From positions 1 through 64,000 of IMG/VR virus record IMGVR_UViG_3300028557_000031: DNA of 64,000 nt. One strand, 5' to 3'. How positions within the stretch are numbered: position 1 is the first letter of the stretch; each line of letters opens with the position of its first letter. The translations under genes were made by a program, and so were the position numbers. Of the stretch, positions 8,473 to 34,646 are shown one piece after another. The notes under the pieces are model-generated. The model saw nothing but the letters and a program-made list of their open reading frames with translations, was not told the origin of the DNA and made no database searches. This DNA comes from an uncultured virus (IMG/VR IMGVR_UViG_3300028557_000031) (taxonomy: Duplodnaviria; Heunggongvirae; Uroviricota; Caudoviricetes).

Positions 8473-10473
8473 ATGAACGACACATTAGGCGACGACGATA
8501 AGACACTCTCAAGGAAGAAACCTACCTCCGAATCGGGTACTCCCGTATTGGATAACTTTTCTCGTGACTTGAACAAATTGGCAGAACAAGGAAAACTTGA
8601 CCCAGTGATAGGTCGGGAGAAAGAGATTATTCGTATTGCTCAAATCCTTTCCCGTAGAAAGAAGAACAACCCTATTATCTTGGGGGAACCAGGCTCAGGT
8701 AAAACCGCTTTGATTGAGGGATTGGCGTCTCTTATTATCAATGGAGAATGTCCCAAAAATCTTCTTGACAAGCGTATTGTCAATTTAGACCTCACCGCTG
8801 TGGTGGCAGGGACAAAGTATCGTGGTCAGTTCGAGGAGCGTCTAAAGGTTATCCTTGAGGAACTCTCCAACAATCCCAACATCATTGTCTTTATCGATGA
8901 GATACACACATTGATTGGTTCAGGTAACTCAACAGGTAGTTTAGACGGTTCAAACATCTTTAAACCCGCACTTGCTCGTGGAGAAATTCAATGTATCGGT
9001 GCAACTACCTTGGATGAGTATCGTAAGTCATTTGAAAAAGACGGAGCTTTGGAGCGTAGATTCCAAAAGGTCATTGTAGACCCCTCATCAGTTGAGGAGA
9101 CCATCCAAATTCTCACTCACATTAAAGACCGATACGAATCGTTCCACAAAGTGGCATACTCTCAAGAAGTAATCGAACTTTGTGTGAAGCTCGCAGACCG
9201 ATATATCACCGACCGTGAGTTCCCCGACAAAGCCTTTGACATTTTGGATGAAGTTGGTGCTCGTAGTCAAACCGAGCAAAAGATTCCTGAAGTAATTGAA
9301 GAACTAAAACTCAAGGCTTCGGAAATCAAACAACAAAAGATGGATGTTGTAAAGAAACAGAACTACGAAGAAGCGGCAGCACTAAGGGACAAGGAGCGTA
9401 AAATCCTTGCTAAACTCGAAGAGGAAAAGCGGAAATACGCGGAAGAATCCTCAACAACTCGTATCCCTATCTCGGTGGAACAAGTCTACGATGTTGTTTC
9501 CAATATGACCAAAATTCCTGTGAGTAAAATGTCAGTTGACGATATTAACGCTCTTATTAATATGGACAAATCCCTTATGGAAAAGGTAATTGGTCAAGAC
9601 GATGCGGTGTCTATGATTGTCAAATCAATCCGTCGTAACCGAATCGGAATCAAAGACCCTAACCGTCCTATTGGTTCATTTATCTTCTTGGGTTCAACAG
9701 GTGTGGGTAAGACCCACTTAGCAAAACAGATTGCTAAGGAGATGTTCGGGTCAGAGGATGCGTTGATTCGAGTCGACATGAGTGAATATCAAGAGAAGCA
9801 CACACTGTCTCGTTTGGTGGGAGCACCCCCAGGATATGTCGGTTACGAAGAAGGTGGACAGCTTACCGAACAGGTAAAAAACAAACCATATGCGGTTATC
9901 CTATTCGATGAGGTTGAGAAAGCCCACAAGGACATTTTCTCTATTCTCCTTCAGATTCTTGATGATGGTCACGCAACCGATTCCCTCGGTCGAAAAATCA
10001 ACTTCAAGAACACCCTTATCATCATGACCACCAACCTCGGAGTCAAGAAACTTCAAGACTTTGGAGCTGGTATCGGGTTCTCCTCTAACAAGTACTCAAA
10101 CGAGGAGGCTAAAAAACAAATCTTGATGAAGGAAATGAAGAACTTCTTTTCCCCCGAGTTCCTAAACCGTATCGATGACACCATTGTGTTCCAAACACTC
10201 ACAAAGGAGAACATCGAGAAGATTGTAGGACTAGAACTTAGTAAACTCTCCAAGCGACTAGGTCACATGAAGTACAAAGTGGTGATGGACCCCACCCTCA
10301 CAGAGTACATTGCAAAAGTCGGTTTCGATGATGAATACGGAGCTCGTCCAGTAAAACGAGCCATCCAAGACAAAATCGAAGATTACCTATCGGAACTTAT
10401 CCTAATAGGTAAACTTAAAGAAAATCGAAAATACACCCTAAAGGTGGTAAATGAAGAGGTGAAAATCTCTTAA
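8473..10473 (+). CDS. clpC: ClpC/ClpA-type AAA+ ATPase lacking the N-terminal Clp-repeat domain
   Basis: Two AAA modules (GEPGSGKT/FIDEIH and GSTGVGKT/LFDEVEKAH), UVR-type middle domain (VKKQNYEEAAALRD), IGF ClpP-docking loop (GAGIGFS). Confidence 0.9.
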   Translation: MNDTLGDDDKTLSRKKPTSESGTPVLDNFSRDLNKLAEQGKLDPVIGREKEIIRIAQILSRRKKNNPIILGEPGSGKTALIEGLASLIINGECPKNLLDKRIVNLDLTAVVAGTKYRGQFEERLKVILEELSNNPNIIVFIDEIHTLIGSGNSTGSLDGSNIFKPALARGEIQCIGATTLDEYRKSFEKDGALERRFQKVIVDPSSVEETIQILTHIKDRYESFHKVAYSQEVIELCVKLADRYITDREFPDKAFDILDEVGARSQTEQKIPEVIEELKLKASEIKQQKMDVVKKQNYEEAAALRDKERKILAKLEEEKRKYAEESSTTRIPISVEQVYDVVSNMTKIPVSKMSVDDINALINMDKSLMEKVIGQDDAVSMIVKSIRRNRIGIKDPNRPIGSFIFLGSTGVGKTHLAKQIAKEMFGSEDALIRVDMSEYQEKHTLSRLVGAPPGYVGYEEGGQLTEQVKNKPYAVILFDEVEKAHKDIFSILLQILDDGHATDSLGRKINFKNTLIIMTTNLGVKKLQDFGAGIGFSSNKYSNEEAKKQILMKEMKNFFSPEFLNRIDDTIVFQTLTKENIEKIVGLELSKLSKRLGHMKYKVVMDPTLTEYIAKVGFDDEYGARPVKRAIQDKIEDYLSELILIGKLKENRKYTLKVVNEEVKIS

Positions 10474-13222: not shown

Positions 13223-13824
13223 GGGGGTGAACGGTATTGATTGGCAGGGTTAATCATACGGGGCATGCAGTGAGATGTTTCCTATCACTTTAATCTATGG
13301 GAGTGCTTTTTAAGTGGCAACACTTTTGAAAAGCTTCAGGCTGTAGGTCTTCTTACAACTGAAGCGGTTACTGTAGCTTAGGCTATAATAACCGTGGGTC
13401 GATGGGGACATATACCTTGAAACAGAAGTCCTTATGGTGTGGTTTCTACCTTAAAAGAAATGGAGGTAATGTTTGGTGTTCTACCGATTTGAGTGAACAC
13501 TCCACAGTTTCTGATGACGATGGCAAAATAGGAATCAGATATTTCGGAGGGTTAAACAAACCCTGACCTAAGCATGTAGTCCTTTATGGGTAAACTGAGC
13601 AAGACGTGGGTTAAAAATCGAGCCCCTTCATATCGTGAGATATGTCGAAAATCGGATGAATTCAGGGGAAGTCTTTCGGGATTATCCTGAGCCAAGCCTG
13701 GTAGGAATAGGAAGGTGCAGAGACTAGTGGGTGGTAGACGCTTCTACCGTAATACCACATTAGCGTCCGACATCTTGAAAAAGATGATGATATAGTCCAC
13801 TTGTGTCGAATCCCACCACCTCCA
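13223..13824 (+). ncRNA. ssrA: tmRNA interrupted by a group I intron in the T-loop
   Basis: Acceptor stem GGGGGTG/CACCTCC with G3-U70 and discriminator A; GGGCATGC...AGCATGT helix; tag frame 13316-13381 (GNTFEKLQAVGLLTTEAVTVA*); T-arm GTGGG-TTCGAAT-CCCAC restored only when 13612-13805 is removed. Confidence 0.92.
13612..13805 (+). mobile_element. Group I self-splicing intron (194 nt, no ORF)
   Basis: P1 GGGU|U pairs with AGCCC giving a U-G splice pair; P/Q motifs GAATTCAGGGGAA and TATCCTGAGCC; R GTGCAGAGACTAG; S GATGATATAGTCC; P3 TCGGATG/CGTCCGA; terminal G at 13805. Confidence 0.9.
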
Positions 13825-14649: not shown

Positions 14650-14737
14650 GGAAAAGTATCCAAGTTGTTGTACGGCACCTGACTTAAAATCAGACATAAG
14701 GTAAACCATATCGGGGAATCAAATCCCTCCTTTTCCG
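14650..14737 (+). tRNA. Degenerate tRNA with a Ser-type body and TAA anticodon (probable pseudo-tRNA)
   Basis: Acceptor GGAAAAG/CTTTTCC, discriminator G, long variable region, loop CT-TAA-AA, T-loop ATCAAAT, D-loop lacks GG. Confidence 0.55.
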
Positions 14738-15506: not shown

Positions 15507-15582
15507 GCCGAAGTAGCTCAGTGGTAGAGCAGCTTTCGTAAAAGATGGTGTGACGCGATAGGTTCGATTCCTGCCTTCGGCT
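15507..15582 (+). tRNA. tRNA-Thr(CGT)-like gene with an aberrant anticodon arm
   Basis: GCCGAAG/CTTCGGC acceptor, canonical D arm and TTCGATT loop; anticodon arm shortened (CTTT-CGTA-AAAG) and variable region lengthened. Confidence 0.6.
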
Positions 15583-15606
15583 CTTAATTACTCAATAAAC
15601 TATTTA

Positions 15607-16453: not shown

Positions 16454-16744
16454 TCATTGTTCCCAATCTGAAAATTTCAAACCCCACATCAAACCAATCA
16501 TAGCCATTTCCCTTTCCGCAAGGTGTTTGTTGATTCTAAGATTTTTTCTTATAAATTCAGTACCCCACAACTGCCATTCATCATTTTGAGCTTTGGTCAT
16601 TTCCCATTCCTGATACCAAGAATCTTTTCTGTCTTTAATATCCTCGTAAGAAATATTATGACCTGCAATATAAAACATTTTGTTGATTAGTTCTTCAACA
16701 ACTTTCTGATTTTTTTCCTGTTTTGATAATCGCTTCTTTGTCAT
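16454..16744 (-). CDS. Hypothetical phage protein
   Basis: 96-aa ORF translationally coupled to its neighbours. Confidence 0.55.
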   Translation of the reverse strand: MTKKRLSKQEKNQKVVEELINKMFYIAGHNISYEDIKDRKDSWYQEWEMTKAQNDEWQLWGTEFIRKNLRINKHLAEREMAMIGLMWGLKFSDWEQ

Positions 16745-17361
16745 TACATTAAAAATTTTATAATTTTATCCTTTATACCTGATTGCTTTATACCTTCCCA
16801 AGACCTTGGTGTTTGAACAAAATTACTTAAGCCTGGTTTGTTATCTGAACCATCTCTGTCAGAAAATTGAGCACCCAAAAAATCTATAGACATATCCAAA
16901 TCATCAACCGCAACCCAATGAGTAATCTCAGGATGAGATTCCAACCAATGTTGAATTTCCATGAATCTCTCTAATTCCAAATCAGCCCTGAATCTTAGTT
17001 TAGCCCATTCAGATGGAAATAAATCTTTAAACATTCCTGTGGTATCTATTGGTCTTTTAATAACACCCTGTGATAAGTAATAATCTCCAAGTTCCTCGAG
17101 TGTTGCGTGAAACCTCCAATCTGAACTCACCACATATTCTGCGCCTGTTTTCTCAAGAATTTTGTTGAAAACCTTAATCGCTTTTGGGTCGAAGTTATCA
17201 AATCGAACATATACAGGTAAGTCATTTGCTGATGTACCCATAGTTCTACCCTCTTTGATTTGTTTCTTCCTACGAGAACCCCAGTTCTCTGCCAAGCAGA
17301 TTACACCATCATTATCTAAGAATATTACTTTCATCTTGAATTGATTTGTAGTGAGATTCAT
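16744..17361 (-). CDS. HAD-superfamily phosphatase (Swiss-Army-Knife RNA-repair type)
   Basis: KVIFLDNDGV, VVSSDWR and WVAVDD motifs; true start probably MKVIF. Confidence 0.78.
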   Translation of the reverse strand: MNLTTNQFKMKVIFLDNDGVICLAENWGSRRKKQIKEGRTMGTSANDLPVYVRFDNFDPKAIKVFNKILEKTGAEYVVSSDWRFHATLEELGDYYLSQGVIKRPIDTTGMFKDLFPSEWAKLRFRADLELERFMEIQHWLESHPEITHWVAVDDLDMSIDFLGAQFSDRDGSDNKPGLSNFVQTPRSWEGIKQSGIKDKIIKFLM

Positions 17362-22311: not shown

Positions 22312-22409
22312 TGGTGTGAGCGGGATTCGAACCACGCGGCACGGTCTTTTTCACGGACTTGCTCTACCATGGGAGTATCATATGAGTACTCCACCTGAGC
22401 TATCACACC
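22312..22409 (-). tRNA. tRNA-Phe(GAA) with a hairpin insertion in the D-loop
   Basis: GGTGTGA/TCACACC acceptor, loop GT-GAA-AA, insert GGAGTA-CTCATATGA-TACTCC inside the D-loop; weak anticodon stem and bulged T-stem. Confidence 0.65.
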
Positions 22410-23234: not shown

Positions 23235-23311
23235 TGGTGGGCCTGGCAGGAATCGAACCCGCGACCTCGAAATTATGAGTTTCTCGCTCTAACCGTCTGA
23301 GCTACAGGCCC
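23235..23311 (-). tRNA. tRNA with CAT anticodon, Ile2-type body, encoded CCA
   Basis: GGGCCTG/CAGGCCC-A-CCA, loop CT-CAT-AA; lacks the initiator C1:A72 mismatch and GGG/CCC anticodon stem. Confidence 0.85.
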
Positions 23312-23472
23312 TGATGTTTTGTCAATTATAGAAAATCAATTTCATATTGTCAAATCGTTTACCTTGAAAGAGTTGAATTTCCGACATTTTTTATCTGAGT
23401 TAAAAGTGTTTAGTAAACTTTTTTTTGTTACAATAAACCTCATTAGTTTATTGAGCAATTTTTAGTTTATTG

Positions 23473-23544
23473 TGACCCCGAGGCGATTCGAACGCCCGAC
23501 TAGTATGTTAAGACACACTGCTCTACCATCTGAGCTACGGGGTC
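23473..23544 (-). tRNA. tRNA-Lys(CTT)-like gene with a 6-nt anticodon loop
   Basis: GACCCCG/CGGGGTC acceptor, canonical D and T arms, GTGTG-TCTTAA-CATAC anticodon arm. Confidence 0.7.
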
Positions 23545-23621: not shown

Positions 23622-23864
23622 AAAAATTTAACAAAGTATAACCAAGATTCTGTATTTAATCTATCATTAGTCTATTTGCCCCCACCTTACCCGACCAGCT
23701 CACCGTCGTGGGTTGTTTTGGGTTGCATCCTCGGTGGTAATGACGATATAAGGATGTGGACTTATAACTGACCATTATAAGTTTGTTCCCTTATATCTCC
23801 CACCTTAAGCGTGTGATGTCCTGAGTTTCCTCTCCTAAGAGCGACAGAACTTTGTTAAATTTTT
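23622..23864 (-). ncRNA. rnpB: RNase P RNA, minimal (reduced S-domain)
   Basis: 16-bp P1; P2 TCTGTC/GATAGA; P3 CTC-TTAG-GAG; CR-I GAGGAAACTCAGGA pairing with CR-V ACAGAATCTTGGTTAT to form P4 with a bulged U; P5 CATC/GATG followed by CAA; CR-IV-like AGACTAATGA. Confidence 0.85.
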
Positions 23865-31345: not shown

Positions 31346-33046
31346 GTGATAAAGATAAAACTGAAAATTAATAAAAATATGACAGTCTTAGGTTTCTCCG
31401 TTGGGCACGATAAAGGTGCTGTAATAATCAAAAATGGTCAAGTAATTGTTGGAATAACACAAGAAAGACTTACAAGAAGAAAACATGATGGAGCATTCAC
31501 AGGTGGTGCAATTCCCGTGGAGTCTATTATGTATTGTCTTTCCGTATTGGATATTACCGTAGATGATTTAGACCTCATTGTTTACAGTTCAACTGAATTG
31601 GTCGATAACACATACGAACTTTTCAATAAAATCTTCCAAGTACCAAAAAAGAAACTTGTGTTCATGCCTCATCATTTGGCTCACGCATATTCTTCTTTCT
31701 TTTCTTCAGGTTTCGATGAAGCTGCAGTTATTGTCGCAGATGCATCGGGTTCAATTTTAAATCATAAAACTAAACTTGGTGAATGGTATCCTGAAAAATC
31801 ACATGAAGGACTCAATGAGGGTGAAGATTGGACTGAAGGTATTTCTTTGTATCATTTTACCAGAAGTGGTCATAGTGAAGTTTACAAGAAATGGATAAAA
31901 TATCCCGTGCCCCTTGAAAGTAATGATGGAGTGTCGTTAGGTACTATGTATTCACAGGGATGTTTACAATTGATATATGAACCCAACAGTAATGTTTGGC
32001 CGGCAGGTAAACTTATGGGATTAGCTTCATATGCAAATTCAGAATTTGTAAAGAATTTCCCTGAATACATAAAATATGAAAACGATGACATTCATATACC
32101 AAACGGTGGGATTCTTCCACATATTACTTGGAGAAATGATTTTCAAACTAAAGCTAATGTTGCAGGGGTTTATCAAAGAGAACAAGAAAAATCATCCCTG
32201 ATATTGGCAGATATGATTAAAAAACTCACAAACTCAAATAATGTTTGTACTGCAGGGGGTTCCTTTTTAAATTGTAATTCTAATGAAATTATCATAAATT
32301 CAGGACTATTCGAAAATACATTTTTCGTCCCTCCAGCTGATGACAGTGGTATTCCTCTTGGATGTGCGTGGTACGCATATCAACAAGTTGCTGAAATTCA
32401 ACAAACATTTCCATTGTGGCCCTACTTTGGTAAAAAGTATTCAAATAGAGATGTTGAAGAAGCTACGAGTAAATTTCCAAACCTCCGAGTAGAATATTGG
32501 GATAATTTTGATGATATTGTTGAAACCATAACTGACAGACTTGTTGAAAATAAAGTTATCGGATGGTTCCAAGGAGGTTCCGAAATTGGACCTAGAGCTT
32601 TGGGAAATCGTTCAATTATTGCGTCACCCACATCAAAATGGATGAAAGACAGAGTTAACCATGACCATAAACATAGAGAATGGTATCGTCCTTTTGCACC
32701 TGCAGTAATTTTTGATTTACAGAAAGAAATATTCCAAACTGATTATTTTTCTCCATTTATGTTAGTTACCGCAACTGTTGCAGATGAATGGAAAGAAAGA
32801 ATCCCTGCGGTAGTCCATATCGATGGGTCCGCAAGATTTCAATCTGTCACACCAAAAAGTAATGAAAAGTTTTTCAAACTTATAAATAAATTTTACGAAA
32901 AAACTGGAATCCCTGTTTTGTTGAACACTAGCTACAATGGTGGTCACGAACCAATGATTGAAACACCATTTGATGCTATTAAATCTTTTTTAGATTGTAA
33001 TTTAGATTTTCTAATAGCTGAAAATTATATTATTAGTAAAAATTAA
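31346..33046 (+). CDS. Carbamoyltransferase (NodU/CmcH family); start probably Met at 31378
   Basis: GHD..A, QERLTRRKH, HHLAHA, GKLMGLASY, GPRALGNRS, RPFAP, LLNTS. Confidence 0.9.
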   Translation: MIKIKLKINKNMTVLGFSVGHDKGAVIIKNGQVIVGITQERLTRRKHDGAFTGGAIPVESIMYCLSVLDITVDDLDLIVYSSTELVDNTYELFNKIFQVPKKKLVFMPHHLAHAYSSFFSSGFDEAAVIVADASGSILNHKTKLGEWYPEKSHEGLNEGEDWTEGISLYHFTRSGHSEVYKKWIKYPVPLESNDGVSLGTMYSQGCLQLIYEPNSNVWPAGKLMGLASYANSEFVKNFPEYIKYENDDIHIPNGGILPHITWRNDFQTKANVAGVYQREQEKSSLILADMIKKLTNSNNVCTAGGSFLNCNSNEIIINSGLFENTFFVPPADDSGIPLGCAWYAYQQVAEIQQTFPLWPYFGKKYSNRDVEEATSKFPNLRVEYWDNFDDIVETITDRLVENKVIGWFQGGSEIGPRALGNRSIIASPTSKWMKDRVNHDHKHREWYRPFAPAVIFDLQKEIFQTDYFSPFMLVTATVADEWKERIPAVVHIDGSARFQSVTPKSNEKFFKLINKFYEKTGIPVLLNTSYNGGHEPMIETPFDAIKSFLDCNLDFLIAENYIISKN

Positions 33047-33053
33047 TTTTATT

Positions 33054-34646
33054 ATGAGTGTAATCTATGGTCTTTTCGCAGCTGGACATAGTCCATCAAC
33101 AACTTTGATTGTTGACGGTGAAATAATACATGCAGTAGAAGAAGAGAGAATCAAACGAATTAAATCGGGAGAAGATTATGGGGCGTACCCCGATTTATCA
33201 CTAAAGGCTGTCGAAGATAGAACTAATATAAAACTTAAAGATGCTGATTATGTGGTTTTTGCTGAGCCAGCACCACCGGTATATGCTAGGAGATTAACTA
33301 ATGATAATTATTCTAAAGTGTCTCACCACCTTGCACATAATACCGCAGCTTATTTTACAAGTGGAATGGAAGGAAAAGTACTTTCAATTTCACATGATGG
33401 TGGTGGAGAATCTTCTTTTATGCGAGTCTATGTATGTGAGGATGGTAAGATGAATGAAGTTCATCGATTATCCGGAACTAACTCTGGCAGTCTTTCACAA
33501 CTCTGGGGATTTATAACAAATTGGATGATGGGTCGTAATTCAAATTGTAGGTTTGAATGGATAATGTGTAAGGATGAAGGTAAGGTCATGGGAATGGCAC
33601 CTGATGGTTATTACGATGAAAGAATCCAAAAAATTCTACATAGTATCCTATCATATAATGATTTGAAATTTTATCCTTCGGGAACTGACCAAAAAACGAA
33701 GTTTGTTATGGAACGATTACTCGAAGAAGGTTTTTTTGACACTCTTAAAAAACGAGAAGTTTTCAGTTTTAATTTACAATACTTTACTGAAGAATTGATG
33801 TTGAGATTTATCGACGACCTACACAAGAGAATGCCCGACTACAAGAAACTCTGTTTTTCAGGTGGTCTTTTTGCAAATGTTAAACTGAACCAAAAAATAA
33901 ATGAATTACCGTGGGTTGAAGAAATATACATTCTTCCTCCAATGGGTGATGAAGGGCTTTCTTTAGGCGCGGCAATTCATAAAGCAGTTGAATTAGGTGA
34001 AATTACAAAACCAATAAAACTTAAAAATGTATATTTTGGTTTTGATTATTCAGATGAAGAAGTTATAAACTTGGCTACAAAACATGATTTTTTAGTTAAA
34101 AAATATATTGTTGATGAAATTGCGACGGATTTAAATAAAGGTTTGATTATTGGATGGTTTCAAGGTAAAATGGAACTTGGACCACGTTCCTTGGGAGCAA
34201 GGAGTATTTTGGTAAGACCTACAGATTACAATACCCACGCAGAGTTAAATCGAAGATTGAAAAGATATGATACAATGCCTTTTGCACCAATGATAATGGG
34301 TGAGTTTTTTGAAACGGTTTTCCCGACCGCAAAATCCAAGTATGCCGCTCAGTTTATGACTTTAACATTTCCAACCCATGAACCATGGATTTATAAAATT
34401 CCCGCAGTAATTCAGAAATCGGATAAAACTGCCAGACCTCAGGTAGTGGAAAAAGAAAATCTTCCCAAAGTTTGGGAACTTATGAATTCGTACTACGAAC
34501 TCTCAGGAATCCCATTACTACTTAACACCTCATTCAATGCTCATAACGAACCCATTATTGAGCACCCCGAAAATGCTTTTGTTCACCTTAAAAATAAAGT
34601 GATTGATAAATTAGTTATTGGAGATTATGTATACGAAAATAAATAA
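33054..34646 (+). CDS. Carbamoyltransferase (NodU/CmcH family), second paralog
   Basis: EEERIKRIK, HHLAH, EGKVMGMA, GGLFANV, GPRSLGARS, LLNTSFN. Confidence 0.9.
   Translation: MSVIYGLFAAGHSPSTTLIVDGEIIHAVEEERIKRIKSGEDYGAYPDLSLKAVEDRTNIKLKDADYVVFAEPAPPVYARRLTNDNYSKVSHHLAHNTAAYFTSGMEGKVLSISHDGGGESSFMRVYVCEDGKMNEVHRLSGTNSGSLSQLWGFITNWMMGRNSNCRFEWIMCKDEGKVMGMAPDGYYDERIQKILHSILSYNDLKFYPSGTDQKTKFVMERLLEEGFFDTLKKREVFSFNLQYFTEELMLRFIDDLHKRMPDYKKLCFSGGLFANVKLNQKINELPWVEEIYILPPMGDEGLSLGAAIHKAVELGEITKPIKLKNVYFGFDYSDEEVINLATKHDFLVKKYIVDEIATDLNKGLIIGWFQGKMELGPRSLGARSILVRPTDYNTHAELNRRLKRYDTMPFAPMIMGEFFETVFPTAKSKYAAQFMTLTFPTHEPWIYKIPAVIQKSDKTARPQVVEKENLPKVWELMNSYYELSGIPLLLNTSFNAHNEPIIEHPENAFVHLKNKVIDKLVIGDYVYENK

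Follow-up and report, generated by a model that had tools for sequence, protein, structure and literature searches.

We identified, on the minus strand of a genome fragment from a large, uncultured lake-water phage, a 243-nt gene that from its sequence and predicted fold encodes a miniature RNase P RNA descended from the type A ribozyme of bacteria. The full catalytic domain is kept (P1-P6, P15-P17, CR-I, CR-IV and CR-V, the bulged U, the A-rich J5/15 and the GGU loop), and P18 and the specificity domain are lost except for P7 and one hairpin. Many phage contigs carry the RNA in conserved form, with compensatory changes, and it usually lies tight against tRNA genes there. At a probability of about 0.7, we read it as a working phage RNase P RNA that is probably bound by the host protein RnpA and would mature phage tRNAs without reading the tRNA elbow. 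RNase P RNA is viewed as a gene that all cells have and inherit vertically; a conserved viral counterpart would extend the translation-related functions supplied by large phages to include a ribozyme.

The window, i.e. the whole stretch of 64,000 nt analyzed here, belongs to an IMG/VR virus record (IMGVR_UViG_3300028557_000031) of 74,204 nt that is estimated to be 25% complete. The record carries a gene for a T4-like large terminase (TerL), whose 27% identity to a Flavobacterium phage is the sole hint toward a Bacteroidota host. A sequence-only reading of the window had already proposed an RNase P RNA at this site, and all sequence elements it listed were found on the minus strand at the coordinates it gave. 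The parts of the RNA and its neighboring tRNA genes are the following:

23622-23864, minus strand: entire gene for the miniature RNase P RNA, 243 nt bounded by the two strands of P1 (RF00373 and fold)
23849-23864, minus strand: P1 5' strand, 16 bp with 23622-23637
23843-23848, minus strand: P2 5' strand UCUGUC, then a conserved GC; its partner GAUAGA is at 23660-23665
23832-23841, minus strand: P3, a minimal hairpin CUC-UUAG-GAG
23818-23833, minus strand: CR-I, i.e. J3/4 and the P4 5' strand AAC-U-CAGGA with its bulged U (Rfam consensus alignment)
23819-23827 and 23640-23647, minus strand: the two strands of P4, with bulged U
23807-23818, minus strand: P5 5' strand CAUC and the J5/7 segment, which is the P6 5' strand (pairing and covariation)
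23807-23813 with 23696-23701, minus strand: P6 pseudoknot between J5/7 and the P17 loop (covariation)
23730-23804, minus strand: vestigial specificity domain, with P7 (GGUGG/CCACC) around a conserved GAG, a hairpin and a 7-nt return strand
23745-23797, minus strand: nested hairpin inside P7, 53 nt
23714-23729, minus strand: P5 3' strand, GCAA, A-rich J5/15 and P15 5' strand (Rfam consensus GCAA...AAAuAG)
23678-23713, minus strand: P16, P17, the L17 loop (P6 3' strand, 23696-23701), the GGU-containing internal loop and the P15 3' strand
23638-23677, minus strand: CR-IV (AAAUAGACUAAUGA), P2 3' strand, J2/4 and CR-V (Rfam consensus alignment)
23472-23544, minus strand: nearest downstream tRNA gene, 77 nt past the P1 3' end (ARAGORN anticodon 'ctta', Rfam 48.4 bits)
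23235-23311, minus strand: tRNA-Met(cat), the sole CCA-encoding tRNA gene in the window

In an Rfam scan of 276 nt, the archaeal RNase P model RF00373 aligned full-length to positions 23627-23859 of the minus strand with 34.1 bits (E = 1.9e-8), which is below the gathering score of 84 for this model. The alignment kept the register of P1-P3, CR-I, P5, GCAA, P15/P16, CR-IV and CR-V; the earlier reading had named a failure of RNase P models to align the CR-I and CR-V segments as grounds for giving up its proposal, and both were aligned. No RNase P match was returned by a gathering-threshold Rfam scan of the whole window, in which tRNAs and a group I intron were found, or by a permissive scan (E<=10) of the 901 nt around the element. 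Since RNase P was found only in the 276-nt scan, which has laxer filters, the earlier blank scans reflect a filter effect. By blastn, the window element had no match at E 0.01 among 50,697 phage records.

Folding of a 256-nt stretch containing the element gave -68.6 kcal/mol, compared to -51.6 +/- 4.3 for shuffled sequences (z = -3.91), and none of 200 shuffles folded as well. CR-V of the window consists of ACAGAA and the P4 3' strand UCUUGGUU, followed by A. Three two-strand differences of P4 from the RF00010 consensus still pair and a fourth becomes G-U, which bears out the proposal that the changes in P4 preserve pairing. Likewise, the absence of P18 and of a P8-P14 architecture was confirmed: nothing lies between the P15 3' strand and CR-IV in the window, and P7 and one hairpin alone occupy 23730-23804. 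The P6 pseudoknot had been overlooked.

Relatives were collected with the CR-I 15-mer of the window, which occurs at 102 loci in viral contigs. The 18 loci with a CR-V motif 116-204 nt downstream were kept, and the other 84, in which this motif is missing, were dropped as chance matches. Degenerate patterns with the P4 letters left free added a few more members; one locus matched in this way (L116) was also dropped as a chance match. With the window counted, the family comprises 21 distinct sequences, which come from about 24 viral contigs between 9 and 416 kb in length. Most of CR-I and CR-V is prescribed by the collecting patterns, and the conservation seen there is therefore built in. When 18 relatives were scanned with Rfam, 14 matched RNase P models over the full model (E 1e-19 to 4e-6), RF00010 at 10 loci and RF00373 at 4, while L022, L035, L038 and L039 had no RNase P match. 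The scores were 32-69.5 bits against a gathering score of 100 for RF00010, and 32.1-61.3 bits against 84 for RF00373. In the best alignment (L107) the consensus letters of RF00010 were matched in CR-I, GCAA, the A-rich J15/16, GGGUA, CR-IV and CR-V, and the order CR-I, CR-IV, CR-V is canonical in the window and in the model alignments of the relatives.

In an alignment of the 21 sequences (A1), A155 and A161 of J5/15 are invariant at letters that the search pattern left free, and the G of GGU is invariant as well. CR-II and CR-III are absent together with P8-P14; of the specificity domain there remain P7, a G-A-G that never varies, a single hairpin and a short return segment that ends in an invariant A-C. 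Among the relatives, the hairpin inside P7 can be as short as about 10 nt or as long as about 130 nt. P3, a helix that is likewise supported, ranges from 3 bp up to inserts of about 60 nt and always ends just before CR-I. Furthermore, an additional hairpin of about 40 nt was seen in J2/4, between P2 and CR-V, in L021 and in a variant from a sediment sequencing run (window positions 23654-23664).

We next turned to the support for individual helices. Of 28 pairs scored in P4, P5, P7, P15, P16 and P17 of alignment A1, 19 change on both sides, and 92.0% of all cells are paired, compared to 26-45% when the partners are slid by 1-3 columns; the observed values were reached by 0 of 500 shuffles. P4, with eight pairs and the bulged U, is paired in 99.4% of cells and has compensated changes at two pattern-free pairs (A-U to G-C at one, A-U to C-G or G-C at the other). 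P5 is paired throughout (100%) and all four of its pairs change on both sides, as do four of the five pairs of P7 (94.3% paired) and every pair of P16 (96.8%) and P17 (90.1%). P15 is weak as aligned, with 63.9% of cells paired. The strands of P6 are paired in 90.4% of cells, compared to 15-49% when slid, and all five pairs change on both sides, one of them being split between A-U in 9 sequences and U-A in 8. Divergent members (L009, L072 and L101) preserve this pseudoknot with quite different complementary words: UGGAAC/GUUCCA, CCGCUU/AAGCGG and UUGUU/AACAA.

Because MAFFT misaligned P1-P3, these helices were tested by geometry instead. In 19 of 22 members, the six bases after CR-IV pair 6/6 with a hexamer that lies upstream of P3 and has GC after it; there are 16 distinct P2 hexamers, with L080 and L038 as compensated variants. 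The geometry script mis-anchors L107 and L022, and P2 of L107 was 6/6 in a separate run. For P1, the eight bases after GGUUA were compared with those immediately preceding P2; 7 or 8 of the 8 positions pair in 16 of 22 members, a level that was reached by only 6 of 432 cross-combinations. P3 is enlarged by about 50-60 nt in L124 and L014, which places the 5' strands of P1 and P2 further upstream in these two; L014 has only a weak P1/P2 and L022 no clean P1 or P2. The covariation across the family helices, P1, P2 and P4 included, agrees with the earlier proposal of selection on structure. Altogether, these sequence data support the identification of the window element as a true, selected homologue of RNase P RNA on a phage record; the catalytic domain of the RNA is intact and its specificity domain vestigial.

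Comparison with known RNase P RNAs places the phage RNA closest to bacterial type A (RF00010; rnpB or M1 RNA), with which it shares the order and sequence of CR-I, CR-IV and CR-V, the helices P1-P6, the P15-P17 region including its loop with GGU, and the short motifs GC and GCAA that follow P2 and P5, respectively. It differs from type A in size, the window RNA having 243 nt against the 367 columns of the RF00010 model. For the 140 specificity-domain columns of RF00010 the phage RNAs have only 36-75 nt (36 nt in L107), and the 24 columns of P18 are gone (0 nt in L107). Moreover, the P4 pair beside the bulged U is C-G in 21 of 21 aligned aquatic members, of which the patterns fixed the G side, and the phage RNAs score below gathering and are encoded by phages without an RnpA gene. 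On this comparison the phage RNA is a descendant of the type A enzyme and is predicted to work like it, departing from type A in its specificity domain, P18 and gathering score.

Archaeal type T, found in Pyrobaculum and its relatives, is another natural RNase P RNA that has lost most of the specificity domain and measures about 200 nt. Type T is a cellular archaeal gene whose partners are archaeal proteins, and it works with a vestigial specificity domain; the phage RNA differs from it in having the type A hallmarks P6 and P15-P17 with the GGU loop. RF00373 is the best clan member for the window in a scan that reports the best member alone, so the scores of a type T competitor are hidden. A second comparison is with engineered type A catalytic domains, which still cleave pre-tRNA without the specificity domain, notably with the protein subunit, although their activity is weak. 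This cleavage by the catalytic domain alone is a precedent for the mechanism proposed here for the phage RNA. Unlike the engineered deletions, the phage gene is natural and conserved, and it keeps P7 and a hairpin flanked by the invariant G-A-G and A-C.

A related form was found in cultured phages when a phage collection was probed for the family by BLAST. L107 searched against GenBank phages matched an unannotated stretch in the Microbacterium phages Zooman and Big4 (73.7% identity over 93 nt). The genome of Zooman (OK040793.1; 192,730 bp; host M. foliorum NRRL B-24224) carries the RNA at 89338-89558, where its 221 unannotated nt take up exactly the space from tRNA-Arg(ccg) to tRNA-Arg(cct). 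The Zooman RNA aligned with the full RF00010 model (53 bits, E 7e-16); its specificity domain is 59 nt long and P18 is missing. In total, four cultured M. foliorum phages (Zooman, Big4, A3Wally and one more) carry the related form, with 85-100% identity. It differs from the aquatic family in its CR-I variant AGGAAGUUCCGGGC, in a P4 near the standard sequence that lacks the C-G swap, and in the host of Zooman, which is an actinobacterium. Because P4 of Zooman is close to the standard, the Microbacterium form represents a related but distinct branch. This 221-nt form in cultured Microbacterium phages is new in this analysis. One further candidate, L130 (LR756501), was dropped since it had no RNase P match. 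The surrounding Zooman stretch (L129; OK040793.1 87947-91042) also has an extra Rfam tRNA match at 1241-1316 of the locus (31.9 bits) that is missing from the record annotation.

The occurrence of the RNA in cellular genomes was assessed by a scan with a spacing-tolerant pattern of one genome per prokaryote species (185,579 species). Of four matches only one was real, L128, which lies beside a tRNA gene on a 3,128-nt contig binned with an archaeal metagenome-assembled genome and scored 38.2 bits with RF00373. The other three (L125-L127) were rejected, being coding-like sequence with no Rfam match. The miniature family is not a cellular RNase P gene.

Among the 14 loci that matched an Rfam RNase P model, 8 have a tRNA gene that starts 0-8 nt downstream of the RNA, and 3 more have one that ends 2-12 nt upstream of it. 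In the window, same-strand tRNA genes lie 77 nt downstream and further on, so the element does sit among tRNA genes as first described. We propose that the miniature RNA would be transcribed together with the phage tRNA genes, and that in those relatives with a tRNA 0-8 nt after P1, the RNase P cut at the 5' end of that tRNA would also free the 3' end of the RNA itself. Because the next tRNA gene is 77 nt away in the window, this idea of self-release does not apply directly there. The RNA would then fold into the catalytic core, probably with the host RnpA protein, and cut the 5' leaders of phage (and host) pre-tRNAs, presumably recognizing its substrates by the acceptor stem, the leader and the 3' end while leaving the tRNA elbow unused. 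The likely benefit would be extra or host-independent capacity for tRNA maturation during infection. The GGU loop of the phage RNA sits at the site where type A enzymes bind the tRNA 3' end; as only 1 of the 11 tRNA genes of the window encodes CCA, this loop may lack a partner at the time of cleavage. A CCA-adding-type protein was found in only 2 of 5 member records, and no gene for a tRNA-processing enzyme was seen adjoining the window RNase P RNA.

Several genes of the window encode aberrant tRNAs or tRNA-like RNAs. The tRNA at 23472-23544 has an anticodon arm with either a 4-bp stem and an 8-nt loop (G-U-CUUA-A-C) or a 5-bp stem and a 6-nt loop, and could be a decoder of UAA or of a quadruplet (UAAG). 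At 15507-15583 on the plus strand, a tRNA-like gene (ARAGORN 'aa'; Rfam 37.7 bits) has normal acceptor, D and T arms and a short stem with a 4-nt loop in place of the anticodon loop. Two more were found by Rfam only: a 98-nt gene on the minus strand at 22312-22409 (37.1 bits) with an insert in the D-arm region, and a Leu-like (UAA) gene on the plus strand at 14650-14737 (35.8 bits) with the non-canonical T-loop AATCAAA. These four genes, together with the loss of the elbow-reading domain, lend some weight to the alternative that the RNase P core has been repurposed to act on tRNA-like RNAs, on polycistronic transcripts of the phage itself or on host RNAs. However, 10 of the 11 tRNA or tRNA-like genes of the window have a canonical GTTCGA-type T-loop, the relatives, those of the Microbacterium phages included, sit in ordinary tRNA arrays, and no conserved non-tRNA partner was seen, and we therefore consider a repurposed ribozyme unlikely. 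The same T-loops and tRNA arrays speak against the suggestion of the sequence-only reading that loss of T-loop recognition would suit the odd tRNA-like genes nearby.

A second alternative concerns the protein subunit. No RnpA gene (PF00825) was found in any of the seven carrier records searched, i.e. the window record, where its absence had been noted before, five other records, which span 169-416 kb and include two that are 91-100% complete, and the complete Zooman genome; the same search was positive in 10 of 14 control genomes. A phage RNA that kept the RnpA-binding surface and was itself a poor enzyme could act as a decoy that soaks up host RnpA and depresses host tRNA maturation as part of host takeover, and the lack of a phage RnpA and the loss of the substrate-reading domain would both fit such a role. 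A decoy would not, however, be expected to keep the positions of chemistry and substrate contact that are conserved here (the bulged U of P4, ACAGAA, the adenines of J5/15 and the GGU loop), and the carrier phages bear many tRNA genes that need 5' processing; we regard this explanation as quite improbable. That the RNA is a decaying, functionless fragment of a captured bacterial rnpB gene, as its scores below the Rfam gathering thresholds might suggest, is very hard to reconcile with its conservation on about 24 viral contigs, where its boundaries are precise and eight helices show compensatory changes, and with its 85-100% conservation among four cultured phages. We thus favor a working RNase P RNA that would mature phage tRNAs.

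A bolder form of this working-enzyme reading, on which we are evenly divided, is that large phages of several lineages (aquatic T4-like, jumbo and Microbacterium phages) carry their own RNase P ribozyme. No earlier viral example would then precede it, and among natural RNase P RNAs of bacterial type it would be the smallest; it would lack an elbow reader, would act with host RnpA or free of protein and would often excise itself from a tRNA array. The invariant G-A-G / A-C internal loop around the remaining hairpin could be a new minimal module for substrate docking or protein binding.

No description of a phage- or virus-encoded RNase P RNA was found in a search of full-text literature, the coverage of which leaves out most subscription journals, and none is given in the available portions of three articles (PMC11143913; PMC12880540; PMC3486863). 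The phage RNAs would amount to a natural experiment on minimal RNase P, since evolution has dispensed with the elbow reader and P18 and retained the catalytic domain, and they would bear on the long-standing question of the purpose of the specificity domain. This question is directly testable at the bench because the related form is present in four cultured phages whose laboratory host is harmless. Moreover, standard annotation misses these miniature genes, as they fail the Rfam gathering thresholds and the Zooman record leaves the gap unannotated, so the tRNA-processing capacity of phages is under-counted.

We also examined where the window occurs in sequencing runs. Its DNA was present at half or more of the sampled words in 18 DNA runs from lake, freshwater, aquatic and sediment samples, 14 of which may be the source sample, and small shares were present in two marine metatranscriptome runs. 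In one metatranscriptome run (88% likeness), a 157-nt contig covers 23812-23868 and 23666-23738, and 27 other letters replace a 73-nt part with the specificity-domain hairpin. This contig is the RNase P RNA of a relative. Stretches from the neighboring open reading frames were equally low in depth in that run, and such libraries can contain DNA, so the contig may stem from DNA and not from a transcript.

Further features of the window were recorded alongside. A perfect sigma-70 consensus (12/12; TTGACA, 17 nt, TATAAT) lies on the minus strand at 23353-23325, just upstream of the tRNA-Met gene, and there is no comparable site directly upstream of the RNase P RNA. The group I intron is on the plus strand at 13602-13818 (RF00028, 75.1 bits, E 3e-17). 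Near the plus-strand tRNA cluster, the protein encoded on the minus strand at 16744-17361 contains the HAD domain known from RNA repair proteins of the 'Swiss Army Knife' kind (PF18143, E 7e-20). Finally, the plus strand carries a large ATP-dependent protease gene at 8473-10473 (phrog_4871, E 2e-237) and two tandem genes for Nol-like carbamoyltransferases at 31346-33046 and 33054-34646.
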